Positions 3 to 32,332 are shown, counted from the first letter of the stretch. The stretch is DNA of 32,928 nt from Thermoplasmatales archaeon (GCA_023128855.1 JAGMDE010000002.1:1-32928); one strand, 5' to 3'. Translations and numbers: made by a program. Notes: generated by a model not told the origin, from the sequence alone.

Positions 3-1388
3 GAATCAGTTGAGCTTGCTAAAGGACGAGCTTTTGGAACTAAAGGGGAACACAAAGCAGCAGATATACTTCTTGAGAATATGACAAAATTAGGACTTTA
101 TGCTTGGAAAGAGCAAATCCAAAATATTCCAAATAAGCCAGATTATTCAGAACTAACACATGGATATCAGGTGTCAGACTACAAATTAAAAATCACAAAT
201 ACAACCAGTGGACATGTGGAATCTGTTGATTGTCAAATAACTCTAGTAAAGTTAGAATCTCCACAGCATGGACAAGTAAATTATTTCAACTTTAGTGGAC
301 TCAAGATTAAAAAGAGACCCACAAAACCTCTTCAACGGATTAATGCTTTTATTGAAGATAAAAAAGGGGAGGATTATGTCCTCATCAAGGAACATGGTTA
401 TTTGGGTTTTTCTCGCAACCCTAATGCAACTTTCCCTATAGGTGTAAAAATACTCCATCGATTTTTTTACCCAATTAAACAAATAATGGTAGGACGCTTT
501 GGCGCATTAAGGAGGTTAGAGAAAGCAATTTTAAAAAAATTTTTTCCTAACTGTAAAGGTCTGATTATTTATGATTTTACTGATGATACTCGCGACATCT
601 CAGTTAAAGGACAGGCGGTGCCTAATATACTCATAAACGGGACAATAGGGAGAAAAATCGTTCAAGATACTGAAAATTATACTGTTGATTTTTATCTAAA
701 ACAACGTTACAATGAGTCAATAATTAGTTACAATGTGATAGGTCAGCTCAATGGAACAAATCCAAATAAAACGATTATTGTTGATTGTCTGTATGATTCA
801 GTATGGTGTCAGGGTACTGGCGATAGTGCTATTGGTATGGGAATTGTCATGGGTATTGCAAAATATTTTACTGATCATAATATCACACCGAAATATAACA
901 TTAAATTCATTGGTTTTGGCGGTGAAGAAACAGGATGCAGAGGGGCAAGATACTATGAGGCGGCTCATAAGGATGAAAATATAACACATGTAATTGACAT
1001 GAATCAAGTAGGATTCGATCAAAAAGATCCGCGTCTCACTCTTAATTTGATATGTAACAAATATAGTTTCATGAATGAAGTATGGAAGGTTGCAGAAAGA
1101 ACTGATTATGTAGAAAGAACAGGAAACACTAGAGACATAGCAAAGAGATGGTGGCCTGAGGGAGCCCCTAGTGATGATGCTACTTTTGGTCAGAATAGAC
1201 CAAATTGTAAGACTGTTTGTTTTCTAACTGATTTTCCATGGATATGGCATCATAGAGATGGCTTGAATCATACTGAGGGAGATGTTTTTAAATATTTTGA
1301 TCGGATATATACAAGTGCTACAGGTGAAATTGCACTAAATGTTACATTAGCCATAACTGTTGAGGAGGACAGGCTTAAAAGTAAGTAG
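3..1388 (+). CDS. M28-family / PA-domain peptidase-like secreted protein, paralog 1 (5' end lies left of the window)
   Basis: The frame is open from base 3. Residues upstream of the ATG at 81 (ESVELAKGRAFGTKGEHKAAD) align with the conserved N-terminal block of paralogs 2-4, so the gene is truncated by the window edge. M28-type motifs present: GTGDSAIGMG, GFGGEETGCRGA, IDMNQVGF, HHRDGLNHTEGD. Confidence 0.75.
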   Translation, partial: ESVELAKGRAFGTKGEHKAADILLENMTKLGLYAWKEQIQNIPNKPDYSELTHGYQVSDYKLKITNTTSGHVESVDCQITLVKLESPQHGQVNYFNFSGLKIKKRPTKPLQRINAFIEDKKGEDYVLIKEHGYLGFSRNPNATFPIGVKILHRFFYPIKQIMVGRFGALRRLEKAILKKFFPNCKGLIIYDFTDDTRDISVKGQAVPNILINGTIGRKIVQDTENYTVDFYLKQRYNESIISYNVIGQLNGTNPNKTIIVDCLYDSVWCQGTGDSAIGMGIVMGIAKYFTDHNITPKYNIKFIGFGGEETGCRGARYYEAAHKDENITHVIDMNQVGFDQKDPRLTLNLICNKYSFMNEVWKVAERTDYVERTGNTRDIAKRWWPEGAPSDDATFGQNRPNCKTVCFLTDFPWIWHHRDGLNHTEGDVFKYFDRIYTSATGEIALNVTLAITVEEDRLKSK

Positions 1389-1460
1389 ATTTAGAAAATG
1401 CCTATCTTATGGAATATTATAAAAAATATTATATATAAGTTGGTCCCATAACATATATTT

Positions 1461-3248
1461 ATGGCTTATGGGGGTAAAGATTTAACAAAAAGGCTGTTTG
1501 TACTAAGTGTTTTCATCTTATTAGTTGGAATTTCAATAATACCAAGTATAAATGGAAATGTGTCTGAAAATGGCGTTTATGATAAAGGAAATCAAGCAAT
1601 TGGTTCCTTAGAGGGTGATAATGGGCTTGATCTTCAATTCATTTATAATTTAACTGAGAATTTAAGCAATATCATATTTACTGAATATAACGAGTCTGCA
1701 GGTGAAATTGCTAAAGGAAGAGCATTTGGAACTAAAGGAGAACATAAAGCAGCACAAATGCTATTTGAAAATTTTTCAGATCTGGGACTCTATACATATT
1801 ATGAAAAATTAGAAAATACAAAAGAAAAACCTTATCTGGCTACTAATACAGATATTAATGAAAGAGGTTTAACAGTTATTGATAAAAATTCTCAATCTAT
1901 AACTAATGTCTCCGACTATTATATTTCTCCAAGAGTAAATCTGACTTATTTTAAGCTTTTTCTAGATGAATTTAAAGGTCAAAATCCAATAATTGGCACA
2001 ATTTTAGAAAAAATAATTACATCCTTCATTCTACGTAATAATGGAAGTTTTGATCGGAGATTTAATCTCTATGATTTTGACCGTTTGACGCATAATTTTT
2101 CATATAAAGGTTTAAAGGTGCTTCCAAAACCAACCTATTATTCATTAACAAAAGACATTATCCGATATTTTGATAATGATGAACCATTTGTGTATATCGA
2201 CAGAGATTATGAATTTACTAATTGGCCTCCTGCAGAACAGACAGTTTTTGATGGAATATTGTATGATAAGATTATTTCAAAGTTATTGGACGCATTCGGT
2301 GGACCAACTGAATATTTTATTTGGACTCTATTCCATCCGAATTGTAAGGGAATAATAAAATTTGATTCTAACAATGATGCCCATAATACTGGACCTTCTA
2401 CCTCATTTATTCCTGTAATTAGAGTAAATAAAACAGTTGGAGAAAAGATATATGATGACCCGGAAAATTATACGATAGATTTTTATCTCAATCAAAGCTG
2501 GAATGAATCTGTAGAAAGTTATAACGTAATCGGACAATTAAACGGAACAAATGAAGATGAAACAATAATAGTTTGTTCCTTATATGATAGCTGGTGGTGT
2601 CAGGGAACTGGAGATGCTGCAATTGGTATGTCCATGGTTGTTGCAATTGCTAAATACTTCAAAGAAAACAATATCGTGCCAAGATGTAATGTGAAATTTA
2701 TCGGTTTTTGTGGTGAAGAATATGGACTTAAAGGAGCCTTTCATTATGAGAATACTCACAAAGAAGAAAACATTTCATATATAATTGACTTAAATCAGAT
2801 TGGTTTTACACCTGTAGGACCTGAAGAACCTTACCTTAAATTCCAGATGTGGACAAATAATGAAGGATTAATTTCGACTTTGGATAAATTTCCTATTGAA
2901 AGCAATTATACAAATAGAACTGGGATAGAATATCAGTCAGTATTCGAATCTGAATCTGGACCGAGCAATGTACATCCATTTTGCCATAATATTACTAAAG
3001 GACGTAGAAAATGCGACACAATACTCGTTGTAAAAACAGGAGTTAAGGTTGATGGACCCAACTGGCTTGGTCACCATAAGGATGGAATAAATCATACACA
3101 CGGAGATTCAATTGATATTTTTAACTGGACAGATACCGAAGTAACCGGTGAACTTGCACTAAATCTTACAATATATTTTACTGTTGAAAAAGAAGATGAC
3201 CCTCCTGATAATAAATTTAAAAACCTAGCTTTAATTGCAAGGGATTAA
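1461..3248 (+). CDS. M28-family / PA-domain peptidase-like secreted protein, paralog 2
   Basis: 595-aa ORF with an N-terminal hydrophobic signal/anchor (RLFVLSVFILLVGISIIPSINGN). Conserved block TENLSNIIFTEYNESAGEIAKGRAFGTKGEHKAAQ. M28 motifs GTGDAAIGMS, GFCGEEYGLKGA, IDLNQIGF, HHKDGINHTHGD. I count 21 N-x-S/T sequons. Confidence 0.8.
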   Translation: MAYGGKDLTKRLFVLSVFILLVGISIIPSINGNVSENGVYDKGNQAIGSLEGDNGLDLQFIYNLTENLSNIIFTEYNESAGEIAKGRAFGTKGEHKAAQMLFENFSDLGLYTYYEKLENTKEKPYLATNTDINERGLTVIDKNSQSITNVSDYYISPRVNLTYFKLFLDEFKGQNPIIGTILEKIITSFILRNNGSFDRRFNLYDFDRLTHNFSYKGLKVLPKPTYYSLTKDIIRYFDNDEPFVYIDRDYEFTNWPPAEQTVFDGILYDKIISKLLDAFGGPTEYFIWTLFHPNCKGIIKFDSNNDAHNTGPSTSFIPVIRVNKTVGEKIYDDPENYTIDFYLNQSWNESVESYNVIGQLNGTNEDETIIVCSLYDSWWCQGTGDAAIGMSMVVAIAKYFKENNIVPRCNVKFIGFCGEEYGLKGAFHYENTHKEENISYIIDLNQIGFTPVGPEEPYLKFQMWTNNEGLISTLDKFPIESNYTNRTGIEYQSVFESESGPSNVHPFCHNITKGRRKCDTILVVKTGVKVDGPNWLGHHKDGINHTHGDSIDIFNWTDTEVTGELALNLTIYFTVEKEDDPPDNKFKNLALIARD

Positions 3249-4102
3249 ACAAACCCCTTAACAGAAAAAAGGGGAACATCTCTTTTAATTTCCTTTGGTA
3301 TTACAGGAGGTACTATTCGTGGTTTTACGATTTCTTCCTCTGGAATCCTCAGAGAAAGCAAATCATCCATTGTGATTTTCTTTTGTGGAAAATATTTAAC
3401 AATAGAGCTGTGAAAAACAACATTCTGAGGAAGAATTGGACCCCAAAATGGAATGATACCAAATTCATTTACACGAGTCTTAAAAAACCTGTTTAAGAAT
3501 AGTGATAATTTGAGAAGACCGAAACCATAGCCTATTCTAGCAGGTTTACGTCTATAGTTTTCAGGAGGATCAACACCGATAAACCTACAGATATTTTTTA
3601 CAACTTGATCTTGATTTTTTCTAAGTTCATTTATTGAATAAATAAAAACATTTTTTTTGCCGTAAAATTCATGCAATTTCTTGATATACAGTTCATAATC
3701 AAGTTTATCGAGATTCATATATTTATCAAGAAATCCTTGATAATCCAGCACGCCACCAACAGCAACATATTCAACATACCAGGAGATACGGCTGTCTTCT
3801 GCTTTTCTTGAGCCGAAAATGATTCTAGCTTTTGGAAATACTTTTTTTATTCTATCTAAACGTTTGAATCTGTCATCTTTCTTTGTAAACTGGTAAGTGT
3901 AGATATTTTCTTCAGAAATGATGTTTACTTTATCCTTACTTAGAACTTTAGTAAGTTTTTGTTTGATTTTTTCATAGTCAACTTCTTTTTTAAGGTTTAA
4001 TATGTCGTTAAAAGGAGATTTATAAAAGAAGTGCCAGAGATAATTTACATCTAAAAAAGGATATACATTCCACTGTAGAAATGTAGTTCCAGTTTTATGC
4101 AT
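3245..4102 (-). CDS. PAPS-type sulfotransferase (cytoplasmic)
   Basis: 5'-PSB P-loop HKTGTTFLQ lies directly after the first ATG, and a 3'-PB-like RKAEDSRISWY follows. The frame stays open upstream to 4138 and encodes TITNGEIVIHVG, the beta-strand that normally precedes the P-loop. The true start is therefore probably the ATT at 4135-4133, 7 nt after GGGGAG (see finding). The stop overlaps the stop of the convergent gene at 3245-3248. Confidence 0.7.
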   Translation of the reverse strand: MHKTGTTFLQWNVYPFLDVNYLWHFFYKSPFNDILNLKKEVDYEKIKQKLTKVLSKDKVNIISEENIYTYQFTKKDDRFKRLDRIKKVFPKARIIFGSRKAEDSRISWYVEYVAVGGVLDYQGFLDKYMNLDKLDYELYIKKLHEFYGKKNVFIYSINELRKNQDQVVKNICRFIGVDPPENYRRKPARIGYGFGLLKLSLFLNRFFKTRVNEFGIIPFWGPILPQNVVFHSSIVKYFPQKKITMDDLLSLRIPEEEIVKPRIVPPVIPKEIKRDVPLFSVKGFV

Positions 4103-4259: not shown

Positions 4260-5117
4260 ATGAGTAATAAAACTAAAGAGGGAGCTAAAATAAAACAAAC
4301 AGAATTTATTCAAAAGAGAGACTGGGACATATTAATCATCCTTGATGCTTGCAGATATGACATTTTTAAAGAAATGTCTCAAAAGATACTAGGGAAAAGT
4401 AAAGTAACAAAGATGATAAGTCCAGCAACTCAGACAGTTGAATGGCTTGATAAAACATTTAAAGAACAAGATTTCTCAGATGTTATTTATGTTTCCTCAA
4501 ACCCTTTTGTAAATTCAAAAGGAATAATACCTGAACAGGGTGGTTATTCTTTTAATGGAAAAAATCATTTTAAAAAAATAGTTGACGTTTGGGACACAGG
4601 TTGGAACCCAGATATCAGTACAGTTCATCCTCTTGATGTAAATAAAGCAGCAATCGTATCAATGGATGTCCGTCCAAAGTTTAGATACATAATCCATTAT
4701 ATGCAACCGCATTCCCCTTACATTTTCTATGGTGGTCTAAAGACACATATGCATCCAGTTCAGAATATGCAAAAAAATCTAAATCCACCAACAGATTTGA
4801 GCATCTTTTCAAAAATAGCAAATAAGTTTCTTTCACAGGAAACTATATGGAAAATTGGTAAAAGTCTAGGTAGACCCCCAACATGGGATCTAGGTAAATT
4901 ATGGTTTAAATATGGTCGAGAAGGTATAGAAAAAGGGTATAGAGAAGATTTGAAATTGGTTCTCAACCATGTTAAAAAATTAATTAAATTATACCCTAAA
5001 AAGAAGATAATTATTACTGCGGATCATGGAGAGAGATTAGGAGAAAAAGGCAATTACGGCCATGGTGGTAAAAGAGATAAAGTTGTAATTGAAATTCCGT
5101 GGTTGGAATTTGATTAA
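4260..5117 (+). CDS. alkaline-phosphatase-superfamily metalloenzyme (phosphodiesterase / PglZ / sulfatase-like), no signal peptide
   Basis: N-terminal metal-ligand motif ILDACRYD, candidate nucleophile region SPATQT, HYMQPHSPY, and C-terminal ITADHGERLGEKGNYGHGG (DHG...HG motif of the AP superfamily). Divergent from the sulfotransferase across a 157-nt AT-rich spacer. Confidence 0.5.
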   Translation: MSNKTKEGAKIKQTEFIQKRDWDILIILDACRYDIFKEMSQKILGKSKVTKMISPATQTVEWLDKTFKEQDFSDVIYVSSNPFVNSKGIIPEQGGYSFNGKNHFKKIVDVWDTGWNPDISTVHPLDVNKAAIVSMDVRPKFRYIIHYMQPHSPYIFYGGLKTHMHPVQNMQKNLNPPTDLSIFSKIANKFLSQETIWKIGKSLGRPPTWDLGKLWFKYGREGIEKGYREDLKLVLNHVKKLIKLYPKKKIIITADHGERLGEKGNYGHGGKRDKVVIEIPWLEFD

Positions 5118-5192: not shown

Positions 5193-6746
5193 ATGAAATT
5201 AGTTAATAATAAACTTAAGTGCGGAATCACTCTAATTGTATTCTTTTTGTTATTAAATTCCTTTGTTTTTCAAGGACTAGGAGATAATGGTTCGATAATA
5301 AAAAATTCAGATTATGAATATAGTTACGAATTTTTAGATTTAAAATATATTTACAATATAACTGAGAATCTAAGCAATATCATTTTTACAGAATATAACG
5401 AATCTGCTGGTGAAATAGCAAAAGGACGAGCATTCGGAACAAAAGGCGAACATAAAGCAGCACAAATTTTATATGATAACTTTACAGCTTTAGGGCTTTA
5501 TACATACTATGAACAAATAAATAATACAGAACAATATCCAGAATTAACCCATGAGTTAGAAATTAGCGACTATTTTGTAAAGATAGATGAAAAAGAAATT
5601 GAGTCGTATATTGCACCAGTATGGTTTGAAACTTCTGAAAACGATTATTCCTTAAACTACACATATAATTATTCAAACCTTAAAGTTATAAAACCAAAAA
5701 TAAATCCTATAATATACCTTTTAAAACAAAAAATTAAAGGGACACTTGAGCCTTTTGTAATTATTTTAAAAGATAGGGCTTTTTATCCACATAATCCTTT
5801 AGGCAATATTTCATTTCTTAACAACTTTAAATTCAAATTTTATGTAATCCGCCAACTGCAATGTGCCATTCCCATTTTATACTCAATGCTTTGGGAAAAT
5901 TATCTAGATTATTTTAAAGGATTAATTTTGTATGATTTTTTTAATGAAGATGTTTATGATATGAACCTTTTGAAGTACGCAAACTGTGTTCCTTTCATTT
6001 ATATTAATAAAAGCTGTGGTAAAGAGATTCTTGAGAATATCGATAATACAAGAATCGATTTTAAATTAAGCCAACAGTTGAATACTTCAGTTATAAGCTA
6101 TAATGTAATTGGGCAAATAAATGGAACTTACGAAAATAAAACAGTTATTGTTGATTGTCTGTATGATTCTTGGTGGTGCCAGGGAACTGCAGATTCCGCA
6201 ATTGGTATGTCAATGGTGGTAGCAATTGCTAAATACTTCAAAGAAAACAATATCACCCCAAAATACACTATAAAATTCATTGGATTTTCAGGAGAAGAAG
6301 CAGGTTTGCGGGGAGCAAAATATTATGCATCTTCTCATCTTGATGAAGATATTGTTTATATGATTGATTTAAACCAATTAGGTTTTAATCAAACTGATCC
6401 GAAACTTGTGTTGAATATAATTGGTAATGATGGGGAGTTTTTAGATGAAATTGAAAATGTATGCAAAGATTCAAATTATGCAAATCGTGTTGATAGCTCT
6501 ATTGGTCTCGACCATATTTTGATAAAAAAAGGTATTCCAATTCCAAGTAATCCAATGCCTTTTGCTGATACCCATCCAGATTGCAAAGTTTTATGCTTTT
6601 TAAAAGACAATGGATGGACGCTTCATCATAGGGATGGTTTAAACCATACAGAAGGAGATGTTTTAAAATATTTTGATCCTGAAGATGTTAATGTTACCGG
6701 TGAAATAATATTAAATGTTGTAAAATATCTAACGACAGATTTTTAA
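5193..6746 (+). CDS. M28-family / PA-domain peptidase-like secreted protein, paralog 3
   Basis: Signal peptide MKLVNNKLKCGITLIVFFLLLNSFVFQG. The 35-aa block TENLSNIIFTEYNESAGEIAKGRAFGTKGEHKAAQ is identical to paralog 2. Motifs GTADSAIGMS, GFSGEEAGLRGA, IDLNQLGF, HHRDGLNHTEGD. The C-terminus is nearly identical to paralog 4. Confidence 0.8.
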   Translation: MKLVNNKLKCGITLIVFFLLLNSFVFQGLGDNGSIIKNSDYEYSYEFLDLKYIYNITENLSNIIFTEYNESAGEIAKGRAFGTKGEHKAAQILYDNFTALGLYTYYEQINNTEQYPELTHELEISDYFVKIDEKEIESYIAPVWFETSENDYSLNYTYNYSNLKVIKPKINPIIYLLKQKIKGTLEPFVIILKDRAFYPHNPLGNISFLNNFKFKFYVIRQLQCAIPILYSMLWENYLDYFKGLILYDFFNEDVYDMNLLKYANCVPFIYINKSCGKEILENIDNTRIDFKLSQQLNTSVISYNVIGQINGTYENKTVIVDCLYDSWWCQGTADSAIGMSMVVAIAKYFKENNITPKYTIKFIGFSGEEAGLRGAKYYASSHLDEDIVYMIDLNQLGFNQTDPKLVLNIIGNDGEFLDEIENVCKDSNYANRVDSSIGLDHILIKKGIPIPSNPMPFADTHPDCKVLCFLKDNGWTLHHRDGLNHTEGDVLKYFDPEDVNVTGEIILNVVKYLTTDF

Positions 6747-6817: not shown

Positions 6818-6985
6818 TTAAGTAAGAATTGTTAAAATTTAGATAGTATTATGGATAGGTTTTTTCTAAAAACCTCTTTTTTCCTATTTTTTTATTTGAC
6901 ATTGTCCTCATTGTATAAACTAAGATAAAAGTTTATATTAAAATAAGATATTATGGATTTATTATTCTTAAAGAGGTGCATAAAA

Positions 6986-9040
6986 ATGGGAAGTAGATTG
7001 TTTAATAAAGGTTTAGTTTTTGTCATAATATTTTTGTTTGTTGGAGCTAGTGTTGGTGTTTGTAACTTTAATAAAACAAAATGGACTTTAACCGAAAGTG
7101 AAGGATGGGACGATATTACTGTTAGTACTTGCAACTGTGAAAAAAACAAACCAGCTATTATTGATGGTGAGGATTCGACCTCTAAAGGGCTTACTAGTGA
7201 AGATATAGCCGCTTTGCAGAAACAGGCAGAAATCGAGGGGTGGACATATACTGTTAGTGAAAATCCAGCTACAAAATATTCTATAGATGAGTTATGTGGA
7301 TTAGTTGAGCCTGAGGACTGGTGGGTTGGAGCCGAGTTTGATCCATGTTTGCCCGCTGGCGCATTACCAGATTCTTTTGACTGGCGTGTGGTAGCTGGTG
7401 GTTTACCTCCAGTAAAAAATCAGGGAGGATGTGGAAGTTGCTGGGCTTTTGGAACAATTGCCCCTTTGGAATGTAATATAAAAATTGTTGATGGTGTAAC
7501 AGACGATCTTTCAGAGCAATGGCTTGTCTCTTGCAACGTAGATGGATATGGCTGCAGTGGTGGCTGGTGGTGCCATGAATATTTTATATTAGATGGAAAT
7601 AAGGCAGATCCATGTGGTGATTCCGGAGCTGTTTTAGAGGAATATTTCCCATATGTTGCATATGACGCGCCATGTAATTGTCCGTATCCACATGACTATT
7701 TCATTGATGATTGGGCATATGTTGGTCCGATAAATGGTGTTGCCACAGTTGGACAAATAAAACAGGCAATCTATGAATACGGTCCAGTGTCAGTTGCTGT
7801 ATGTGTGAACTCGGCTTTTCAGGGCTATTCTGGTGGAATATTCAGTGGTCCTAGCTGTGGTAGTATAAATCATGCTGTAGCTCTTGTTGGATGGGATGAC
7901 AACCAAGGAACAAACGGCGTATGGTTTTTACGTAACTCTTGGGGATCTGGTTGGGGAGAAGGTGGATACATGCGTATTGAATATGGTGTTAGCAGTGTTG
8001 GATATAGAACAGTCCGGGTTGATTACGGTGGTTTTCAAAACTACCCGCCAAATGTACCAAGCAATCCTGATCCAGAAGATGGAGAGACTGGTGTAAAAAC
8101 TTGGGCTGATTTGAGCTGGACTGGTGGGGATCCAAACTATGGTGACACAGTTACCTATGATGTGTATTTTGAGAAAGGCGATTCCACACCAGATGTATTG
8201 GTATCAGATGATCAACTAGAAACCACCTATGATCCTGGAACAATGGATTATGACTCACATTATTACTGGCAGATTATTGCAACAGATGATCTTGGAGAAT
8301 CTACAACAGGTCCAATATGGGATTTCACCACTCGTTCACCACCCAATAATGCTCCATATGAGCCTAGTAACCCTAGTCCAGCCGATGGTGCAATAGACTG
8401 TGATATTGATATTGATTTCAGCTGGACAGGTGGAGATCCTGACCCTGATGATACTGTTTTTTACGATGTTTATTTAGATGCAAATAATCCTATTCCAACT
8501 ACTTTAGTTTCTGACGATCAAACAGAGACTACATTTGACCCAGGGACTCTTAATAAGGGTATTACTTATTATTGGAAAGTTCATGCTAAAGATAACCATA
8601 ATAGGGTAACTCGTGGACCTGTTTGGCATTTTACTACCGAAGAAGAACCGCCGAATGAACCACCAAATCCGCCAACTATTACAGGTGAGACAAATGGACA
8701 AACTGGAGTAACTTATGATTATAACTTTATTTCAACTGATCCAGAAGGTAATTTTATATCCTATTTTGTCAACTGGGGAGACGATACAACTAGTGATTGG
8801 ACTGAATTTGTATTCTCAGGAACTACAGTAACGTTATCAAAAACTTGGAGTACAGACGGAATATTTACTATTCAAGCAAAAGCAAAAGACATAAATGGTG
8901 CTGAGAGCGAATTGGGAACACTAACAGTTACAATGCCACGGAACAAAATAATTAACAGACCATTCCTACAGTTCCTAGAGAATCACCCAAATATGTTTCC
9001 GATCCTACAAAAACTTCTTCATAGATTAGGACTAAAATAA
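6986..9040 (+). CDS. secreted papain-like (C1) cysteine peptidase with 2 Fn3-like modules, a PKD-like domain and the FPxLxxLL C-terminal tail
   Basis: Catalytic motifs QGGCGSCWAFG, INHAVALVGWD and NSWGSGWGEGGY. I prefer the ATG at 6986 (AGAGGTG SD 7 nt upstream, then signal peptide MGSRLFNKGLVFVIIFLFVGASV) over the ORF-track start at 6953. PKD-like segment YFVNWGDDTTSDW...AKDINGAES. Tail FLQFLENHPNMFPILQKLLHRLGLK. Confidence 0.85.
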   Translation: MGSRLFNKGLVFVIIFLFVGASVGVCNFNKTKWTLTESEGWDDITVSTCNCEKNKPAIIDGEDSTSKGLTSEDIAALQKQAEIEGWTYTVSENPATKYSIDELCGLVEPEDWWVGAEFDPCLPAGALPDSFDWRVVAGGLPPVKNQGGCGSCWAFGTIAPLECNIKIVDGVTDDLSEQWLVSCNVDGYGCSGGWWCHEYFILDGNKADPCGDSGAVLEEYFPYVAYDAPCNCPYPHDYFIDDWAYVGPINGVATVGQIKQAIYEYGPVSVAVCVNSAFQGYSGGIFSGPSCGSINHAVALVGWDDNQGTNGVWFLRNSWGSGWGEGGYMRIEYGVSSVGYRTVRVDYGGFQNYPPNVPSNPDPEDGETGVKTWADLSWTGGDPNYGDTVTYDVYFEKGDSTPDVLVSDDQLETTYDPGTMDYDSHYYWQIIATDDLGESTTGPIWDFTTRSPPNNAPYEPSNPSPADGAIDCDIDIDFSWTGGDPDPDDTVFYDVYLDANNPIPTTLVSDDQTETTFDPGTLNKGITYYWKVHAKDNHNRVTRGPVWHFTTEEEPPNEPPNPPTITGETNGQTGVTYDYNFISTDPEGNFISYFVNWGDDTTSDWTEFVFSGTTVTLSKTWSTDGIFTIQAKAKDINGAESELGTLTVTMPRNKIINRPFLQFLENHPNMFPILQKLLHRLGLK
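8057..8638 (+). repeat. two tandem ~92-aa Fn3-like modules inside the C1 peptidase gene (period 306 nt)
   Basis: Module 1 (8057-8332): PSNPDPEDG...LSWTGGDPNYGDTVTYDVYF...YYWQIIATDD...GPIWDFTT. Module 2 (8363-8638): PSNPSPADG...FSWTGGDPDPDDTVFYDVYL...YYWKVHAKDN...GPVWHFTT. Confidence 0.7.
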
Positions 9041-9165
9041 AATATTTGTTAACCTAATATCTCTTTCTTCTTTTTTTAAAAAATTTTCTGTGTACAAAAA
9101 ATGAAAAAGATATAAATCATATGCTTTTATCAATAAAAATCTGTTATATTATTAACCTGTAAATT

Positions 9166-9237
9166 GCGGGTATGATCTAGTGGTTATGATAGTGGCTTCC
9201 CAAGCCACTCACCCGGGTTCAAATCCCGGTATCCGCA
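9166..9237 (+). tRNA. tRNA-Gly (anticodon CCC), copy 1, G5 variant
   Basis: Hand-folded cloverleaf. Acceptor GCGGGTA/TATCCGC (G5-U68 wobble). D-arm ATCT-AGTGGTTA-TGAT with G18 G19. Anticodon stem GTGGC/GCCAC with loop TTCCCAA. T-arm CCGGG-TTCAAAT-CCCGG. Discriminator A. 72 nt, no encoded CCA, no intron. Confidence 0.93.
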
Positions 9238-9266
9238 TGTTACTAAAGAAAGGAGAGAGGTTGTTT

Positions 9267-11147
9267 TTATATTAGTTCTAGTAGTCTGGCAAATACTGGA
9301 AATCTATCTAGTAATCCACTAATTAATCTAAATTGAACTGGTCTGTAAACTGGTTTGTTCATTGGATCGATACCATCTTCTGCAGCAAGTGTTGGATCGC
9401 CAAATAATGACCACTCGAGCATTGTTTTCCAATCTGACATTTGAAAACCAGATGAAAATGTGTTGTAATAAGCTGAAATGCTGTTCCCCCATACATCTCC
9501 AAATATCTTTGTGCTAACAAGTTCCTCAAATGATTTGACTTCCATCCATCCAGTGGTTCTAGCTACAATATCTGTTCCGGTAGCTCCATAGCTGATACCT
9601 GATGCTGAATAAACTGCAATGCCTCCTCCGTCTTTCTTGTTAAGATTTTTCCAGCTGAAACAGGTATCTGACTCCGAGTATTTGCTATTTGAACACGACT
9701 TATAAACGCAGACAGGATATTTCATAGGGTTTATCACTAAATATAAGTCAAAATCAAGGTAGAGAAATCCTGTGTAAGGTGAAATCAATGTTTTAGCAGG
9801 AACCCAAGTTTCCTTATCTTTTGGTGGATGTGTCGCAATACTAGCCCAGCTACCATGTCCACAAAAATCAACAAAATCTACTCCGCTTCTGAAACCAGCT
9901 CCAATATTTGGCTTTGTTAAAGTCTCATCTGATGCCCATAAACGAGTTGCAGTATATCCTGGTAGTTTGGTTAATACAACTGTGTTAGCATATTCACCTT
10001 CATTGATACTATCCCCAGTAAAAGAATCTCCCCCCATTTGAAGGATCTTATTGATCATTTTGTTGTGATCTTTATACCAGATTATTTTGTCTATTACAAC
10101 ATTTAATTCATTAACATTGTTACATGGAATTTTTCCAAGATAAACATCTGGATGAACGTCTATATCAGCCATATCTCCAGGAAACTCTGCAAATTTACCG
10201 TCCTCATCAACATCCCAATCTGAAAATCCCATAGTGCTATTATAGATATCTGCAAAGTAAAGATCGCTTGGGAAATAATCTTCATATTCATCAGATTTAA
10301 TCCATGCCTGTCTTACCGGAAATATCTCTTCACCTTCAACACCAGCACCAATAAGAATTACGTATGTAATACCCCATGTTTCAATTGCATCTTTAATATA
10401 GAATTTTATATCTTCTTGCTCGTCAACACCAACACCAGATGGGATTTCATCAAGTGTTACCATAACTGTATTAACTGGTGGAGACAAATCATTTTTATAA
10501 TTAACTAGTCGTTGTAATGCTCCCTCAAACTCAGTTGGTGTTAATATCAACAGGTCATACTCACTAGGAAAAGTAATAGGACTTGCTGGTGGTGTGTAAT
10601 CTACTTTAATTGTAACAAGTTCTGAGTATAAAATTAAGTTTTCCTGTGGTTTATATTGGATCGGTTGAATTGGAATAGTAAGAAAAATAACTCGTTCTCC
10701 ATCCTTAAGTCCAGCTCCAGTTCTGTAACCATATCGTTGTTCTGGATAGATGTCAATACCTAAATATGAAATTTCTTTTTCAGAATTTTTTACATTCATC
10801 GTAATTATAGAATCCGGGTATACTTCGGGTGAGAGTCTAACAGGCTTAGAAATTTTCTTTTCGATAGTATTAGAAAACGTGACCTCAACATTATCAATTA
10901 TTGTTCCTAACGGAAAAGTATAAACTTTTGTAACAACCGGTAATGTTGGTTTACCTGTTTCCCAAGAATTAGTTGTAGCTTCTTCAAGTTCAATTAAAAC
11001 ATAATCCTGTTCTTCATTTATTATTGGTTGTGAAAAAATAATTGTTTCAGATATGAAATCTTCTTTCTCGCTTTCGTTTACGGCAACAGCTCCTAGTCCA
11101 CTAATGACTAAACTTAATAGTATTAATAATGTTATTATTTTCCTCAT
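9267..11147 (-). CDS. secreted C25-like (gingipain/clan CD-like) cysteine peptidase with FPxLxxLL C-terminal tail
   Basis: I prefer the ATG at 11147 (GGAGGC SD 8 nt upstream, signal peptide MRKIITLLILLSLVISGLGAVA). Motifs YVILIGAG, DLYFADIY, a His motif FCGHGSW and a downstream KSCSNS Cys candidate. Tail FRLISGLLDRFPVFARLLELI. The family call rests on motif resemblance only. Confidence 0.55.
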   Translation of the reverse strand: MRKIITLLILLSLVISGLGAVAVNESEKEDFISETIIFSQPIINEEQDYVLIELEEATTNSWETGKPTLPVVTKVYTFPLGTIIDNVEVTFSNTIEKKISKPVRLSPEVYPDSIITMNVKNSEKEISYLGIDIYPEQRYGYRTGAGLKDGERVIFLTIPIQPIQYKPQENLILYSELVTIKVDYTPPASPITFPSEYDLLILTPTEFEGALQRLVNYKNDLSPPVNTVMVTLDEIPSGVGVDEQEDIKFYIKDAIETWGITYVILIGAGVEGEEIFPVRQAWIKSDEYEDYFPSDLYFADIYNSTMGFSDWDVDEDGKFAEFPGDMADIDVHPDVYLGKIPCNNVNELNVVIDKIIWYKDHNKMINKILQMGGDSFTGDSINEGEYANTVVLTKLPGYTATRLWASDETLTKPNIGAGFRSGVDFVDFCGHGSWASIATHPPKDKETWVPAKTLISPYTGFLYLDFDLYLVINPMKYPVCVYKSCSNSKYSESDTCFSWKNLNKKDGGGIAVYSASGISYGATGTDIVARTTGWMEVKSFEELVSTKIFGDVWGNSISAYYNTFSSGFQMSDWKTMLEWSLFGDPTLAAEDGIDPMNKPVYRPVQFRLISGLLDRFPVFARLLELI

Positions 11148-12166: not shown

Positions 12167-13744
12167 ATGATTAGGAATAGTTTGTCTAGAAAAGGCTTGG
12201 TTCTGGGAATAATAATCTTGTTTATTGGAATAAGTGTTTTACCGAATATAAGTGGCGGCATCGGAGAAATGAACTGTGTAAACAATGATTTTGGATGTAG
12301 ATCAACCAGCTTTATACCTAATGAAAGTGTATTGGATATCGACTATATTTACAATATAACTAAAGCATTAAGTTATATTATCTTTACCGAATACAACGAA
12401 TCAGCAGGAGAAATTGCAAAAGGAAGAGCTTATGGAACTAAAGGTGAACATCGTGCCGCTAAACTATTACTTGATAATATGACTGACTTAGGGCTTTACA
12501 CCTATAAAGAACAAATAAATAATACAGAAAAATACCCATATTTAACACATGAAATTGAAATTGTTGATTATTATGTTAAAATAGACAATGAGACTGTTGA
12601 TTCTTATATTGCACCGGTATGGATCAAAAACTCTGAAAATAATCATGATTTAAATTATACTTATAATTATAGCAATTTAAAAGTAATTGAACCTCCTCTT
12701 TTTCCAAATTTATATATGATTAAACAAAAAATAAAAGGAGAATTAGAACCTTTTGTAATATTACTAAAAAATAAAGCTTTTTATAATGATGATACTATCG
12801 TAGAGTATTATCCATTTTTAAATAATTTTTATGTAAATTATTATATGATTAGAGTGAGACAGAAAATTGCTACAATAGCATATTCATGGTTATGGAATAA
12901 ACATATGGATTACTGTAAAGGGATATTATTGTATGACATGAATGATAGCTGCTATGATATGAATCTTTTAAAAAATACGAATCGTATGCCATTTATTTTC
13001 ATAAATGGAACTATTGGTAAAAAAATATTAGAGGATTGTGAAAATACTAGAATTGATTTTAAATTAGAGCAAAGATTGAATACTTCTGTTATTAGTTACA
13101 ATGTAATCGGGCAGCTAAATGCTACTGATTCAGATAGTGCAACTATAATTATTGACTGCCTTTACGATTCATGGTGGTGTCAAGGTACTGCAGATGCGGC
13201 CATCGGAATGGCAATGGTAATGGGAATTGCAAAATACTTCTGTGATAATAATATCAAGCCTAAATATAACTTGAAATTTATTGGATTTAGTGGTGAAGAA
13301 CATGGTTTTTGCGCTGGATCAAACTATTATGAAAATATACATAGCGATGAAAATATAAAATATGTTATTGACTTGAATCAACTTGGTTTTTGGCAAAAAA
13401 ACGATGAATTAACACTTAATATTATCTGTAATAAAATAGGTTTCCTAAGTGAAATATGGAAAATAGTAAAACAAGCAAATTATGGAGAAAGAGTAAATAG
13501 CTCAGATAAAGCAATGCCCATTTGGGTGAAGAATGGCGGCCCAAGTAATTCTGGACCTTTTGCTACTAATAGAAGAGATTGTAAAACAGTTTGTTTTTTA
13601 AAAGATGGTGGCTGGAAATTTCATCATAGAGACGGTTTGAACCATACAGAGGGTGATGTTTTAAAATATTTTGATCCAGAAGACGTGAATGTAACTGGCG
13701 AAATAATTCTAAACGTTGTAAAATATTTAGTGACTGATTGGTGA
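12167..13744 (+). CDS. M28-family / PA-domain peptidase-like secreted protein, paralog 4
   Basis: Signal peptide MIRNSLSRKGLVLGIIILFIGISVLPNISG. Conserved N-terminal block IIFTEYNESAGEIAKGRAYGTKGEHRAAK. Motifs GTADAAIGMA, GFSGEEHGFCAG, IDLNQLGF, HHRDGLNHTEGD. Closest to paralog 3. Confidence 0.8.
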   Translation: MIRNSLSRKGLVLGIIILFIGISVLPNISGGIGEMNCVNNDFGCRSTSFIPNESVLDIDYIYNITKALSYIIFTEYNESAGEIAKGRAYGTKGEHRAAKLLLDNMTDLGLYTYKEQINNTEKYPYLTHEIEIVDYYVKIDNETVDSYIAPVWIKNSENNHDLNYTYNYSNLKVIEPPLFPNLYMIKQKIKGELEPFVILLKNKAFYNDDTIVEYYPFLNNFYVNYYMIRVRQKIATIAYSWLWNKHMDYCKGILLYDMNDSCYDMNLLKNTNRMPFIFINGTIGKKILEDCENTRIDFKLEQRLNTSVISYNVIGQLNATDSDSATIIIDCLYDSWWCQGTADAAIGMAMVMGIAKYFCDNNIKPKYNLKFIGFSGEEHGFCAGSNYYENIHSDENIKYVIDLNQLGFWQKNDELTLNIICNKIGFLSEIWKIVKQANYGERVNSSDKAMPIWVKNGGPSNSGPFATNRRDCKTVCFLKDGGWKFHHRDGLNHTEGDVLKYFDPEDVNVTGEIILNVVKYLVTDW

Positions 13745-13877: not shown

Positions 13878-15599
13878 TTAACTATATGGATTACGTTTAG
13901 GTCGCCAGTCGAAATTAATGTAAGGAATCTTTCTATGACCAATATGTCCTTTGATTATTTTTGGTAAGAGTCGTGGCCAGTCATCCCAGTAGTTATTTTT
14001 CCACTTAGTTAAAAAAGCATTGTAAATATATGCTTGTTTGGAGTTATTAATAAAATTGTTATTAGTGATCTGGTTTTTGTTTGATTCAGCTATTTTTATT
14101 CCTATGCTGTTGTTTCTAATTGTGTTTTTTCCATTGATGATATTACTGTTTGATGCGCCCCTAAGATAGATCCCGCATTCTCCATTATCACTTATTATAT
14201 TTCCTGTGATTTTTGAAAAATCACAGCATTGCATCTCTAAGCCAACAGCGGTATTCATCTTGACAGTATTTCCTATTATTTCATTGTTATTTATCCAATG
14301 TGCATAAATTCCTTCTCGATTATTCTGGATGATATTATCTTGTACGATACTCCAGGCATCTTCATAGGCATAATTCAAGAAAAGCCCAATATCATTATTT
14401 TGAATTATGTTATCACGAATTGTTGCATTTGATCTTAAAGTAAGGGTCTTTATCCCAGCATTAAAAGACTGATTTCCACTATTTTGGACTGTAAATCCAG
14501 ATATTCTTACCTGTGGCTCGGAGATTGTTATTACATCTCCGACACCGCCTCCATCAATTATTGTGTTAGATCTATCTTCTCCATCTATTTTGACAGATTT
14601 GTTTACAATGAGGTTTTCATTATAAGTTCCATTCATTACATAGATGGTATATCCTGGGTAGACTTCATTAATAGCCTCTTGAATGGTTTTATAAGGATAC
14701 TCCTTGGTACCGTTCCATGGTCCTGCTGTATTGTCATCATCGACATAGGCAATTGGAAATTGACCGTAAACGCCTGTCAAATAGAATGATTTCTTTTCAA
14801 TGCCACATTCACCATATTTAATATTAAACCAACCCTCGTTCTGCAATTCTGGCCCCCAACTATTTTTAATGATCCAATATCCAGGGTCATCATTATAGCC
14901 CATTATACAAACATAATGTGGGCCCCTTGCAGACCCCCGCCTATGTTGATAAATTCCTTTCTTATATAACGCGAAATCTTCATAGACGAGAAAGTAGGTT
15001 GGAACAGGTCCATTTGTAATTAGTGCAGTTTTAATAACTTCTATATCTTCTGGAAGATAATACCAATCTGAGATTTTTACAGTTCTGTTTTGCCAATCTG
15101 GAGATGTTGTGTTTAAGGGATATTGATATTTATCACGCGGATATGGCCAACATGCCTCATCTGGCATACCATGCTCTTTTAGAAATTTAGTATCAGTTTC
15201 AGGATAAGAACCCCAATCAATTACACCTCCACTAAAAAAGAACAAATGAGCCTCAGAGAGGTCACACCCAAAAGGATAACCAACTTCAATCTGAACCATT
15301 GCTTCAAGGGCAGAGGTCAAAGCAAATGATTCACAACTAGGATAGGCATATTGATTTTTTACTGGCGTCGAAAAATCAATATCACCAGGAATACCATATC
15401 CATTTTCGTCTAAATCAGCAGAGCGCCAACTAAAATATGATGGAAGATCGTCCAATGGTTCTAAATTGATGATTTTTCCTTGTTGAGTTGGTTCTTCAAG
15501 TTTTTCTGATGCAATTTTTATTCCGCTTACAACAGGAAAAATAATGCTTCCAAGTAAAAGAGTTGCAAAAAATATAGATATTAAAGTATTTACTTTCAT
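13878..15599 (-). CDS. secreted papain-like (C1) cysteine peptidase fused to a right-handed parallel beta-helix (NosD/PbH1-like) domain
   Basis: I prefer the ATG at 15599 (GGAG SD, signal peptide MKVNTLISIFFATLLLGSIIFPVVSG). C1 motifs NQYAYPSCESFALTS, HYVCIMGYND and KNSWG. C-terminal half has GTYNENLIVNKSVKIDGEDRSNTIIDG followed by repeated N-rich beta-helix rungs. No FPxLxxLL tail. Confidence 0.8.
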   Translation of the reverse strand: MKVNTLISIFFATLLLGSIIFPVVSGIKIASEKLEEPTQQGKIINLEPLDDLPSYFSWRSADLDENGYGIPGDIDFSTPVKNQYAYPSCESFALTSALEAMVQIEVGYPFGCDLSEAHLFFFSGGVIDWGSYPETDTKFLKEHGMPDEACWPYPRDKYQYPLNTTSPDWQNRTVKISDWYYLPEDIEVIKTALITNGPVPTYFLVYEDFALYKKGIYQHRRGSARGPHYVCIMGYNDDPGYWIIKNSWGPELQNEGWFNIKYGECGIEKKSFYLTGVYGQFPIAYVDDDNTAGPWNGTKEYPYKTIQEAINEVYPGYTIYVMNGTYNENLIVNKSVKIDGEDRSNTIIDGGGVGDVITISEPQVRISGFTVQNSGNQSFNAGIKTLTLRSNATIRDNIIQNNDIGLFLNYAYEDAWSIVQDNIIQNNREGIYAHWINNNEIIGNTVKMNTAVGLEMQCCDFSKITGNIISDNGECGIYLRGASNSNIINGKNTIRNNSIGIKIAESNKNQITNNNFINNSKQAYIYNAFLTKWKNNYWDDWPRLLPKIIKGHIGHRKIPYINFDWRPKRNPYS

Positions 15600-15887
15600 T
15601 TTTAATGTCTCCAAGTTATATAATATTTATAATCAAAGTCATATTTAAATTTATAGTTTTTATTTTATTTTATTTTAATAACGTTTATGATATCTGTGGC
15701 TGTGGCCTAGCTATATTGATAGTATCAATTAGTAACGAGTTCTCCGCCGTCTACATGCTTCTCGCCATTTTGTATTGATTTCTTCCATGTATCCAATGGC
15801 AAGGTATTTGTCTAAGTCTCTATTCGTGGTAAGTAAAATTTGAATTGGTGGCTTTTCTCCTGTTGGAAAGTAGCCCTTATACTAATT

Positions 15888-15940: not shown

Positions 15941-16789
15941 TCACTGTGGTGGTTTATAGTTATATTTTTCAATAATAAGCTTCTCTTTTTCAGCAACTAA
16001 ATTAATTGTTTCTTCGTCGTAATAGTAACTTGCTTTACTATGTTTAGAAACATTTGTTTTACCGCCGCCTCGAATCTGATTCTTTGTCTCTTCATCAAGA
16101 TCATATCCAAATTTTTCAAGCATTTGAATGAAGTCATTTTCAAGTGATTCGGTCTTTATTGTAAAATCCAAAATATTGTTGGTTTTATCGAATTTTCTTA
16201 ACTCTTCAAGAGTTTTTATACCCTTGAAGTTTTTTGTTTGAAAAAAATCCTTCATGAAAAAATAACAATATCTATAAGTCATAAGACCCGCAAATTCACT
16301 AATGAAGCTTTCAGAATACCCTTCAAAAAAATCCTTGAATCGTGAAGGATTATACATTAATTTTAACCACTTTCGAAAATTTTCTGGACTTTGATTATCT
16401 TTATATGTATCAATCCAGAGATATGTTGGCTTTTTTATCTCATTTTTTATGTGAGACCACATATCACCTAATTGAAAATTATTTGAATTATATGGGCTAT
16501 ACTTGGATCCTACTTTATATTTAAACAACTCTGAAAATTTTTGATGATCTCGGACAATTACTCTTCCACGTACTTCTCCATCATTAATACATCCAAAGGC
16601 CCATAATGAGACGTACCAATCCCAAGGGTTTCTAATAGATCCGCAAATTGACTTTTTTGTTTCAAAATTTTCAAGCCAATTATGTTTTCCGATTTGCTCT
16701 CCACCTATATGTTTAGATAACAAGGATGCTATATGTGTACAAGCAGTTTTATGCATCTGTAGGTAAATCATTTTATCTGTTACAAACAT
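15941..16789 (-). CDS. sulfotransferase (family-2-like), cytoplasmic
   Basis: KMIYLQMHKTACTHI matches beta-strand plus 5'-PSB loop, and SIRNPWDWYVSLW matches the RNPxxRxxSxY-type 3'-PB motif. No signal peptide. Confidence 0.65.
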   Translation of the reverse strand: MFVTDKMIYLQMHKTACTHIASLLSKHIGGEQIGKHNWLENFETKKSICGSIRNPWDWYVSLWAFGCINDGEVRGRVIVRDHQKFSELFKYKVGSKYSPYNSNNFQLGDMWSHIKNEIKKPTYLWIDTYKDNQSPENFRKWLKLMYNPSRFKDFFEGYSESFISEFAGLMTYRYCYFFMKDFFQTKNFKGIKTLEELRKFDKTNNILDFTIKTESLENDFIQMLEKFGYDLDEETKNQIRGGGKTNVSKHSKASYYYDEETINLVAEKEKLIIEKYNYKPPQ

Positions 16790-16985: not shown

Positions 16986-18140
16986 CTATTTTACAAGAGA
17001 TAACAATCTCATTAGTAATGGAAAATGTTCTAAAAACCTCAACAAGTAGGAACTATATGATGCTATATCCTTTTGTATAGTTCTAGGTTTTGAGTTTGGC
17101 CATTGCTCTATCAAAGGACACATATCCTTGTTATCCCCACCTGGTATCTCATACGGTGTGTCCCAAATACCCTTAAACGGTTTCTTCTTAGCATCTGGAT
17201 ACCTTTCTTCATAATCACTCCAGTAGTTACCATACTTGCCATCATCCCAGGTATTGTTATATTCATCATTGGCATTCCGTGTGTTGTTTATGAAGTTGTT
17301 ATGATAAATGATGTTGTATTTGCTGAATCCAACGAGTTGTATGCCATTCTTGTTGTTCCAGGTGATGGTATTTCCAGTGATGATGTTGTTGTTGCTGAAA
17401 TATGCGAGCCCTATGCCATAATCATTGTTTGAAATGTTGTTACCCGTGATAGTGTTGTTGCTGGAATCATAGAGATGTATGCCATGCATGTCTTTCGAGG
17501 TAATGTTGTTACCCGTGATGGTATTGTTACTGGAAAAAGCTAATGAAATGCCATTCCAATAGTCGTTCATGATGTTGTTATTTGTGATGGTGTTGTTGCT
17601 GGAAAACCATAAGTAAATGTCCATGATGCAGTTGTTTAAGATGTTATTACCTGTGATGGTATTGCTGCTGGAATTTATGATACCTATACCCCAACTGTTG
17701 TCCAAGATATTGTTGCCAGTAATAGTGTTATAGTTTGAATTTATATAAATACCAGCCTCACCATATCGTATCGTAAACCCGCAGATATTCACATTATCAG
17801 CAGTAATATCGATAATTAACCATTGAATCAACTCAATAACAGTTGTGTCTCTGTTCTCACCAATCAAATTTATCGTTTTATTTATAACCACACGCTCATA
17901 ATATGGCGAGCTATCATCATAGACATATACAGTATCCCCATCATCTGCGTCATCGATTGCATCCTGTATCTTTGTATAGTTATCCTCTCCGCTACCACCT
18001 ACATACAAGGTTTTACCACGACTAAGTGTAGATGGCTGTTCTTCTTTTGATATGCTAACATTATATCCAAATACTATTGGAGATATTGTTGAAACGATAA
18101 ACAGGATTATTATTCCAATTGCAGGGATGTTTTTATTCAG
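16986..18140 (-). CDS. secreted right-handed beta-helix (NosD/PbH1-like) protein with FPxLxxLL tail; probable non-canonical CTG start
   Basis: The ORF-track start at 18008 is a TTG. The frame stays open to 18155 and encodes a typical signal peptide (NKNIPAIGIIILFIVSTISPIVFG) upstream of it. GGGAGGT (18154-18148) sits 7 nt before the CTG at 18140. The body has ITGNNI-type repeated rungs. Tail YLLRFLEHFPLLMRLLSLVK. Confidence 0.65.
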   Translation of the reverse strand: MNKNIPAIGIIILFIVSTISPIVFGYNVSISKEEQPSTLSRGKTLYVGGSGEDNYTKIQDAIDDADDGDTVYVYDDSSPYYERVVINKTINLIGENRDTTVIELIQWLIIDITADNVNICGFTIRYGEAGIYINSNYNTITGNNILDNSWGIGIINSSSNTITGNNILNNCIMDIYLWFSSNNTITNNNIMNDYWNGISLAFSSNNTITGNNITSKDMHGIHLYDSSNNTITGNNISNNDYGIGLAYFSNNNIITGNTITWNNKNGIQLVGFSKYNIIYHNNFINNTRNANDEYNNTWDDGKYGNYWSDYEERYPDAKKKPFKGIWDTPYEIPGGDNKDMCPLIEQWPNSKPRTIQKDIASYSSYLLRFLEHFPLLMRLLSLVK

Positions 18141-32113: not shown

Positions 32114-32332
32114 TTATAAAAACCTACCCATCTGAATGAAATCATTTATACTGCCACCAGCATAACGCGATCCATTAGATGCAATATTTTGTAATATTAC
32201 TATTGCAAAGAATGCGAATAAGCTGGCAATCACTATATTTTTCCTTGATTTCACGGCCATGGATATTTCACTCTTTCCCAATTTTAGCATTTCGCCTGTC
32301 TCATTTAACAGACTGTTTAGTTTTGCGTTCAT
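32114..32332 (-). CDS. small single-pass membrane protein (72 aa) immediately upstream of the radical SAM gene
   Basis: I prefer the ATG at 32332 (AT-rich TATA-like sequence and AAGGT upstream); the longer ORF-track start runs through that promoter. One hydrophobic helix (IVIASLFAFFAIVIL) followed by NIASNGSRYAGGSINDFIQMGRFL. Confidence 0.4.
   Translation of the reverse strand: MNAKLNSLLNETGEMLKLGKSEISMAVKSRKNIVIASLFAFFAIVILQNIASNGSRYAGGSINDFIQMGRFL

Follow-up and report, generated by a model that had tools for sequence, protein, structure and literature searches.

The signals that are read by archaeosortases, exosortases, sortases, rhombosortases and myxosortases, such as PGF-CTERM, PEP-CTERM, LPXTG, GlyGly-CTERM, MYXO-CTERM and Loki/Heimdall-CTERM, stand at the extreme C-termini of proteins with N-terminal signal peptides, and are tripartite: a signature motif, a transmembrane (TM) helix of about 20 residues and a final basic cluster. 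A terminal position and many copies per genome on unrelated secreted proteins are taken as the hallmark of a sorting signal, and the small C-terminal sorting signals described so far all include a TM helix that retains the protein in the membrane (10.1101/2023.06.07.544157). Then, could a C-terminal tail with this hallmark do without the TM helix? Here, we describe a candidate, found on five proteins encoded in a 32.9-kb stretch of DNA from a Thermoplasmatales archaeon (GCA_023128855.1, JAGMDE010000002.1:1-32928). The whole stretch of 32,928 nucleotides is referred to as the window.

PBP5 is a Sec-exported enzyme that an amphipathic helix of 18 residues at its C-terminus attaches to the cytoplasmic membrane, on the outer face (PMC2909392). 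The anchors of PBP5, PBP6 and DacD in Escherichia coli are the last 20-30 or so residues of proteins with a signal peptide, are amphipathic and helical with no TM span, and come after a folded domain; such in-plane anchors make up a functional class and not a homologous family. The C-terminal domain (CTD) of the cargo of the type IX secretion system (T9SS), namely Por_Secre_tail (PF18962/TIGR04183), which is served by the PorU sortase, is a beta-sandwich of about 70-100 residues and needs an outer membrane, and dockerin type I (PF00404) is a duplicated Ca-binding loop-helix of about 60 residues. The signal for glycosylphosphatidylinositol (GPI) attachment, on which a C13 transamidase acts, consists of a small residue at the omega site, another at omega+2, a spacer and then an uncharged hydrophobic C-terminal stretch.

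Tails and carriers in the window

The five tails of the window each run to the stop codon, at the extreme C-termini of carriers whose upstream domains, as judged by translation and Pfam, are unrelated to one another (Table 1). The first-pass annotation of the window, made from the sequence alone, had quoted the same five tails on five proteins with unrelated domains, and both points are borne out. The interval that it assigned to the tail, 8950-9350, takes in only the tails of the C1+PKD and C25 genes, which converge, and the remaining three lie outside. Four of the five tails are of a short form with a single F-P.

Table 1. Tails and carrier genes in the window, with Pfam domains and scores against the tail hidden Markov model (HMM).
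Feature	Position	Strand	Sequence	Score and remarks
Tail of C1+PKD protein	8933-9037	+	MPRNKIINRPFLQFLENHPNMFPILQKLLHRLGLK	66.3; long form, with P-x-x-F-P; match ends 5 residues before the stop codon
Carrier C1+PKD (papain-family Peptidase_C1 + PKD)	6953-9040	+		Pfam; signal peptide from ATG 6986
Tail of C25-like peptidase	9270-9362	-	MNKPVYRPVQFRLISGLLDRFPVFARLLELI	39.4; short form; match reaches the stop codon
Carrier Peptidase_C25 (gingipain family)	9267-11147	-	MRKIITLLILLSLVISGLGAVAV (signal peptide)	Pfam
Tail of NosD/beta-helix protein	16989-17093	-	SKPRTIQKDIASYSSYLLRFLEHFPLLMRLLSLVK	39.3
Carrier parallel beta-helix protein (NosD/Beta_helix)	16986-18140	-		Pfam
Tail of C1+lectin-like peptidase	22901-22990	-		41.4
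Carrier Peptidase_C1 + Lectin_like	22898-24709	-		Pfam; signal peptide present
Tail of DUF4430/CarboxypepD_reg-like protein	25590-25679	+	TPKRVKIILNFLEVFPKLEKLLQPLLNFYM	29.7
Carrier small secreted protein	24867-25682	+	MKKIYTIIIAAILCATILCATITSCSA (signal peptide)	weak CarboxypepD_reg/DUF4430 Pfam matches

Signal peptides had been claimed for all five carriers. Clear ATG-initiated ones are present in four, and the beta-helix protein would have one only if its translation starts at CTG 18140. In this gene, a signal-peptide-like segment (18140-18066 on the minus strand, LNKNIPAIGIIILFIVSTISPIVFG) lies 5' of TTG 18008, which is the first canonical start. At 18140, where the paralogues have ATG, this gene has CTG; GGAGGT is found just upstream, and the sequence is identical in both public assemblies. 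Either non-canonical initiation or a mutation of the start codon could account for this. The tail is absent from all four M28 aminopeptidase paralogues of the window and from the C1/beta-helix fusion (13878-15614) in a tail-HMM search of the window open reading frames (ORFs), just as the first-pass annotation had it.

Size, consensus and specificity of the tail family

A search profile was built from 12 tails, the five of the window and seven from database matches, and run exhaustively against 1.84 billion cluster representatives, which carry no taxonomy labels. It retrieved 427 proteins at E<=1e-3, and among the best 150 of these every match lies 0-12 residues from the C-terminus. A word-indexed protein search, the matches of which fed the exhaustive one, is ill-suited to a 30-residue motif in long proteins; it gave 249 candidates and one match with a 31-tail alignment, and seven matches with a PKD+tail query.

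The general consensus of the tails is [MTI]-P-[KR]-[NST]-[KR]-x(4-8)-F-L-x-F-L-E-x-[HF]-P-(x-x-F-P)-[IL]-L-[RQ]-x-L-L-G-L, and the canonical one is [ST]-M-P-[KR]-N-[KR]-A-I-N-T-P-F-L-x-F-L-E-N-H-P-x-x-F-P-[LI]-L-R-Q-L-L-G-L. The short form keeps only one F-P (…F-L-E-R-F-P-x-L-x-x-L-L…), and a third variant reads …I-P-R-T-R-A-x4-W-F-L-E-R-F-P-M-L-E-R-L-L-x-L-L-R. The F-P core is kept in 265 of 266 distinct tails, which have D/E just before F-P in 86%, K/R at P+3 or P+4 in 85% and the basic linker in 88%. Along this linker, P occurs in 143, K/R in 143, N in 111 and K/R in 142 of 154 tails; the Asn is missing from its position in three of the five window tails (TPRTRE, TPKRVK, SKPRTI). The idea of one tail dialect per genome, which would hint at co-evolution with one receptor, was dropped, since several MAGs (metagenome-assembled genomes) mix long and short forms.

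For specificity, HMMs built from the tails were run against 26,408 six-frame ORFs, 2.46 M residues in all, taken from 248 fetched loci and from the window. Matches were found in 133 ORFs, every one ending fewer than 20 residues from the stop codon and none internal; 102 of the 133 end 0-4 residues before it, and some tails bear 10-18 additional residues past the match. The same ORFs in reversed sequence gave one match. Chance similarity is effectively ruled out by this control together with the terminal position of all matches.

In a 35-protein alignment of PKD+tail sequences, the mean pairwise identity is 59% in the tail and 58% in the linker versus 38% in the adjacent PKD domain. Therefore, the tail is under stronger sequence-specific constraint than its PKD neighbour. 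The orthologues of the C1+lectin-like peptidase in more than 25 other Thermoplasmatota MAGs also retain the tail, though diverged. An apparently shortened tail is seen at the end (…VPRTRTLSYHRLLRTFPNA*) of a PKD protein in another locus (L196, 3631-4152, plus strand), which may reflect a frameshift or the decay of this copy.

Carrier proteins beyond the window

A signal-peptide-like N-terminus is present in 72 of 95 representatives with a Met start and at least 200 residues; some of the remaining 23 resemble N-terminally truncated calls of proteins with domains of extracytoplasmic type. In the 72, Pfam identifies PKD (34), NosD/beta-helix (6), beta-propellers (3) and rhodanese (3), as well as FG-GAP, CBM96, BNR, LamG and peptidases of families C1, C11, C13, C14 and C25. 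The HMM searches gave no internal match and place the tail behind diverse extracytoplasmic domains, at the extreme C-termini of mostly signal-peptide proteins, in agreement with the first-pass annotation.

PKD stands immediately in front of the tail in about half of the carriers (34/72), as might be expected if the tail had no function of its own and was inherited with a shuffled PKD+tail cassette, or arose by chance. However, the tail also follows C25, beta-helix, lectin-like/Ig and DUF4430-like domains, is more conserved than PKD, is never internal and was matched 133 times against once in the reversed control. We regard a functionless tail as very improbable.

The similarity of the C1+lectin-like carrier to its bacterial homologues covers residues 1 to about 460-528 and then breaks off. 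In the place of the tail, the homologues from Ignavibacteria and Zixibacteria end in Dockerin_1, and those from Cloacimonas and Calditrichaceae in the T9SS Por_Secre_tail (loci L035, L037, L049 and L051; PF00404 matches L037 and L051). The archaeal tail thus occupies a position that in bacteria is taken by surface-docking or sorting modules. The sequences are consistent with transfer of the cassette between domains of life, followed by a swap of the targeting module.

The carrier repertoire (C25 gingipain-like, PAD_porph, BNR, PKD) resembles T9SS cargo as well. In one locus (L129, 5311-16378), a C25 peptidase, PAD_porph (a Porphyromonas-type peptidylarginine deiminase), BNR and PPC/PKD genes form a row, with tails on the PAD_porph, BNR and PPC/PKD genes and none on the C25 gene. 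This gene set resembles the gingipain/PPAD cargo of the Porphyromonas T9SS.

Physical character of the tail

The segment after the linker has 22-27 residues, of which 4-7 are charged and one or two are prolines. The highest Kyte-Doolittle mean over 19 residues of it is 0.3-1.3, compared with a threshold of about 1.6 for a TM helix. Because its hydrophobicity is far below this level, the tail has no TM span, and the hydrophobic moment of its two halves (0.43-0.63) is that of amphipathic segments. The basic residues precede the helices, no basic cluster trails them, and the canonical tails end in …LLGL. For a 126-residue construct with the PKD domain and tail of the window protein, AlphaFold2, given a 35-sequence alignment, returned a PKD sandwich (predicted local distance difference test, pLDDT, about 98) followed by a helix at 100-108, a short turn and a helix at 114-123 (pLDDT 76-79). 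The tail is thus predicted to be a helix-turn-helix, and the first-pass view that it is no TM anchor and has such a shape agrees with both analyses.

Comparison with known sorting and anchoring systems

The isolated window and canonical tail peptides gave zero NCBIfam matches at E<=10, and Pfam gave only two weak and unrelated ones (Importin_rep_6 and LRR_At5g56370, E 0.01-0.13). The library does detect short sorting domains of this size. On one contig of a Thermoplasmatota MAG (L085), a large PKD-type protein (3-2765, plus strand) ends in …DTPGFELILVVCALILVLFRKRKRK, that is, PGF followed by a TM segment and KRKRK, and scores 27.6 bits against the 26-position Heimdall-CTERM model of NCBIfam, with a cutoff of 24. 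Since this control was detected, the missing match for the tail is not a failure of sensitivity. The same gene adjoins a tail gene (2797-3783), and such co-occurrence on one contig indicates that the classical tripartite signal and the tail are separate systems. A PDB sequence search with the tail profile gave chance-level matches only (E>1), and full-text literature searches with motif strings and with CTERM plus Thermoprofundales returned no relevant report. Within the libraries and the literature searched, the tail is undescribed, as the first-pass annotation had supposed.

Like the tripartite signals, the tail is found on many paralogous and unrelated carriers per genome and is lineage-restricted. 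Unlike them, PEF-CTERM included, it has no signature motif with a TM helix of about 20 residues and no final basic cluster, it matches no curated HMM, and a search of the local neighbourhood found no cognate enzyme. The terminal position, the signal-peptide carriers and the hydrophobic character could have spoken for a conventional C-terminal TM anchor or for one of the described families (PGF-CTERM, PEF-CTERM, Loki/Heimdall-CTERM, LPXTG or the T9SS CTD). However, the hydrophobicity, the charges and prolines within so short a segment, the missing basic cluster and the Pfam and NCBIfam nulls beside a detected control leave such an identity virtually no chance, and conventional TM anchors and catalogued sorting domains are effectively ruled out. 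The tail appears, from its sequence features, to be of the C-terminal sorting or anchoring kind, but with a different architecture, which lacks a TM helix and puts the basic motif in front.

Like the PBP-type anchors, the tail is an amphipathic and, by prediction, helical end with no TM span, placed behind a folded domain on proteins with a signal peptide. The PBP-type anchors share no sequence similarity with the tail. Unlike them, the tail has a conserved Pro turn between two short helices and a conserved basic motif in front, recurs in one lineage on hundreds of proteins that are otherwise unrelated, and is conserved in sequence beyond its physicochemical character. It is also shorter (25-35 residues) than the T9SS CTD and, unlike that beta-sandwich, is predicted to be helical; no Pfam match connects it with the CTD or with dockerin. 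With the GPI signal it would have in common a residue that is Asn or small, then a spacer, and a C-terminal end of moderate hydrophobicity with no basic tail, and clan CD peptidases are present. However, its hydrophobic stretch holds conserved E, H and R and two prolines, and its spacer is shorter. The canonical K-N-K-A fits omega and omega+2, but the conserved E/H/R and the window tails that lack N do not.

Distribution and gene neighbourhood

The window sequence is identical to contig DAOWJJ010000062.1 of the MAG GCA_030640375.1. The nearest relatives of its C1+lectin-like peptidase are in Thermoplasmatota MAGs, among them SG8-52-3, SM1-50, M11B2D and 3300003432D, which were assigned to Thermoprofundales (MBG-D, for Marine Benthic Group D) by Zhou et al. 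(PMC6461988). Judging from these relatives, the source of the window is a Thermoplasmatota MAG related to Thermoprofundales.

A DNA-pattern scan for the long form (E-N-H-P-x2-F-P-x-L-R-x-L), with one genome per GTDB species, gave 44 places, about 30 of them in Thermoplasmatota MAGs; the MAG CSMAG_2652 alone has 11 matched loci and at least 14 tail ORFs. The scattered bacterial matches are about as many as estimated for chance, and only one of them gave a tail-HMM signal, a weak one (a 61-residue ORF in Aureimonas, 18.5 bits). Among the matches listed for the short-form pattern, Thermoplasmatota MAGs are again enriched; the HMM confirmed Thermoplasmatota loci, several loci without a source label and four low-scoring short ORFs elsewhere (three in bacterial MAGs and one in an unlabelled locus), and most of the listed matches outside Thermoplasmatota MAGs had no tail-HMM match. 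In these scans, the tail occurs almost only in Thermoplasmatota MAGs, with many copies per genome, and tail genes are often in tandem, in arrays of 3-5.

Two canonical tails were seen under other archaeal labels. One is on a 2.7-kb contig of an Altiarchaeota-labelled MAG (L105), in a protein 94% identical to one in CSMAG_2652, and because of this identity to a Thermoplasmatota protein the contig is probably misbinned. The other is on a 3.2-kb low-coverage contig of a Heimdallarchaeota-labelled MAG (L101).

Neighbour clustering over 35 sources, the window and 34 fetched loci, found no recurrent non-tail gene beside tail genes. A family of small proteins with a signal peptide, a helical region, 2-3 C-terminal TM helices and no Pfam match does occur in tail-gene arrays (L185 3282-4049, plus strand; L232 4790-5623 and 7478-7999, minus strand). 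With two loci only, too few to argue from, it is a weak lead to a partner of the tail.

Possible role of the tail

The tail is most likely a surface-retention or sorting module without a membrane span, given the C-terminal position, the signal peptides, the many unrelated carriers per genome, the lineage restriction and the positional analogy with the bacterial homologues. As a tentative reading, which we find plausible though we stop short of calling it probable, the tail would be a C-terminal module, specific to the lineage, by which secreted proteins of the Thermoprofundales type are retained at the surface non-covalently. The carriers would be exported by Sec via their N-terminal signal peptides, and their last 30-35 residues would form the basic linker P-[KR]-[NST]-[KR] and then a small amphipathic alpha-hairpin, in which a turn with Pro joins helix 1 (F-L-x-F-L-E) to helix 2 ([IL]-L-[RQ]-x-L-L). 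This hairpin is neither long nor apolar enough to cross the membrane, and could keep the carrier on the outside of the cell in one of two modes. It may rest at the membrane interface, in the manner of the amphipathic C-terminal anchor of PBP5, or its conserved hydrophobic face and free C-terminus may dock on a conserved surface receptor in a dockerin-like way. The extracellular peptidases and binding proteins would in either mode remain cell-associated in the sediment. That no dedicated enzyme gene recurs beside tail genes was counted for a non-covalent anchor. The sorting or anchoring role proposed in the first-pass annotation is supported by a position analogous to that of the dockerin and T9SS domains; a non-enzymatic anchor accounts for the data at least as well as a sorting enzyme.

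Several points weigh against retention of this kind. The loci used were selected for tails (82 analysed), and the frequencies among secreted proteins are therefore biased; the localisation of the carriers is a prediction from sequence. For the window tails, the Wimley-White interfacial energies, counted from side chains only, lie close to zero (+0.7 to -2.2 kcal/mol), and a rough side-chain sum of +0.7 to -4 kcal/mol is favourable only with coupled helix formation. Since these energies are near zero, lipid binding alone would be weak unless coupled to helix folding. In addition, the linker and the polar residues (E, H, R, G) are conserved in sequence beyond what is usual for generic lipid-binding helices. 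This conservation points to a protein partner or a processing enzyme, for which the neighbourhood search found no candidate.

Such conservation is what would be expected if the tail were a cleavable sorting signal with no TM helix, in which an extracytoplasmic peptidase or transpeptidase reads the hairpin and cuts the [KR]-[NST]-[KR] linker. The mature protein would then be released or transferred to a lipid or glycan acceptor, as with PorU on T9SS CTDs or the C13 transamidase on GPI signals. The linker is as conserved as the helices, and the higher conservation of the tail than of the adjoining domain suggests a single common recognition partner. The candidate enzymes are clan CD peptidases of families C25, C11, C13 and C14, which are abundant in these genomes and are themselves tail carriers (PMC6461988). 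The strictly terminal, many-per-genome occurrence on unrelated secreted carriers is also the hallmark of sorting signals (10.1101/2023.06.07.544157). The N/S/T/D residue of the linker, with A two positions on, resembles a GPI omega site. However, the candidate enzymes show no conserved linkage or one-per-genome pattern, and the clustering of neighbours was empty; established small sorting signals hold their substrate by the TM helix that the tail lacks; and the Asn is missing from the motif in three of the five window tails. A cleavable signal, the main rival to non-covalent retention, is in our judgement unlikely, though it deserves serious consideration.

A more specific version, which we consider decidedly doubtful, would make the tail the recognition signal of a new TM-less archaeal sorting pathway, in which an extracytoplasmic clan CD cysteine peptidase (C25/C11/C13) reads the hairpin, cuts at [KR]-N-[KR] and transfers the hydrolases covalently. 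If this were true, dozens of secreted hydrolases per cell would be joined to a surface lipid or glycan, and an archaeal lineage among the most abundant in sediments would have a functional counterpart of PorU/T9SS or of GPI transamidation. More generally, any processing enzyme for the tail would define a new class of sorting signal, without the TM helix common to the described small C-terminal domains.

The tail is conserved in its hydrophobic face and in the point at which it ends (…LLGL, 102/133 matches 0-4 residues from the stop codon), which could instead reflect contacts between proteins. The hairpins might bundle with each other or on a scaffold into multi-enzyme complexes, perhaps released ones, or a PDZ-type protease might read …LLGL-COOH. 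The dockerin of some bacterial homologues at the same position and the arrays of 3-5 tail genes with differing enzymatic domains are in line with such assembly. However, the neighbourhood search yielded neither a scaffold nor a cohesin-like partner, the end residues differ among the window tails (…GLK, …ELI, …LVK, …FNI, …FYM), and 10-18 extra residues are tolerated in some tails. An assembly element or protease tag seems to us quite improbable.

Returning to non-covalent surface retention, it would bear on how an uncultured archaeon keeps its enzymes and their products near the cell. Thermoprofundales are among the most widespread archaea of marine and estuarine sediments, and are considered degraders of detrital protein, by means of extracellular peptidases of families C1, C11, C25 and M28 (PMC6461988). 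The tail gives a handle on enzyme retention versus release in these sediments. Being common to a large part of the predicted secretome, it is also a sequence marker by which the surface or secreted proteome of the lineage could be recognised in metagenomes, and Pfam or NCBIfam might take up a profile made from the tails.

Other features of the window

The window has a G+C content of 30-38%, and in it archaeal housekeeping genes (FEN-1, OTCase, PurP-like, beta-CASP RNase) are interspersed with many secreted hydrolase genes. The four M28 aminopeptidase paralogues are all on the plus strand (81-1388, 1461-3248, 5193-6746 and 12167-13744) and have near-identical blocks in common, for example IIFTEYNESAGEIAKGRAFGTKGEH, which suggests recent duplication.

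Three further genes are found amid the secreted peptidase genes, at 3245-4102 (minus), 15941-16789 (minus) and 4260-5117 (plus). They include a sulfotransferase-family gene (Pfam Sulfotransfer_1/3), a second with a similar HKT(G/A)T N-terminal motif and no Pfam match, and a third of the alkaline-phosphatase superfamily, sulfatase/PglZ-like. These genes may be linked to surface or glycan modification. In addition, a radical SAM/SPASM-domain gene identified by Pfam (31028-32065, minus strand) adjoins small ORFs annotated without a function, such as 32114-32482 (minus strand), and could be part of a peptide-maturation locus.

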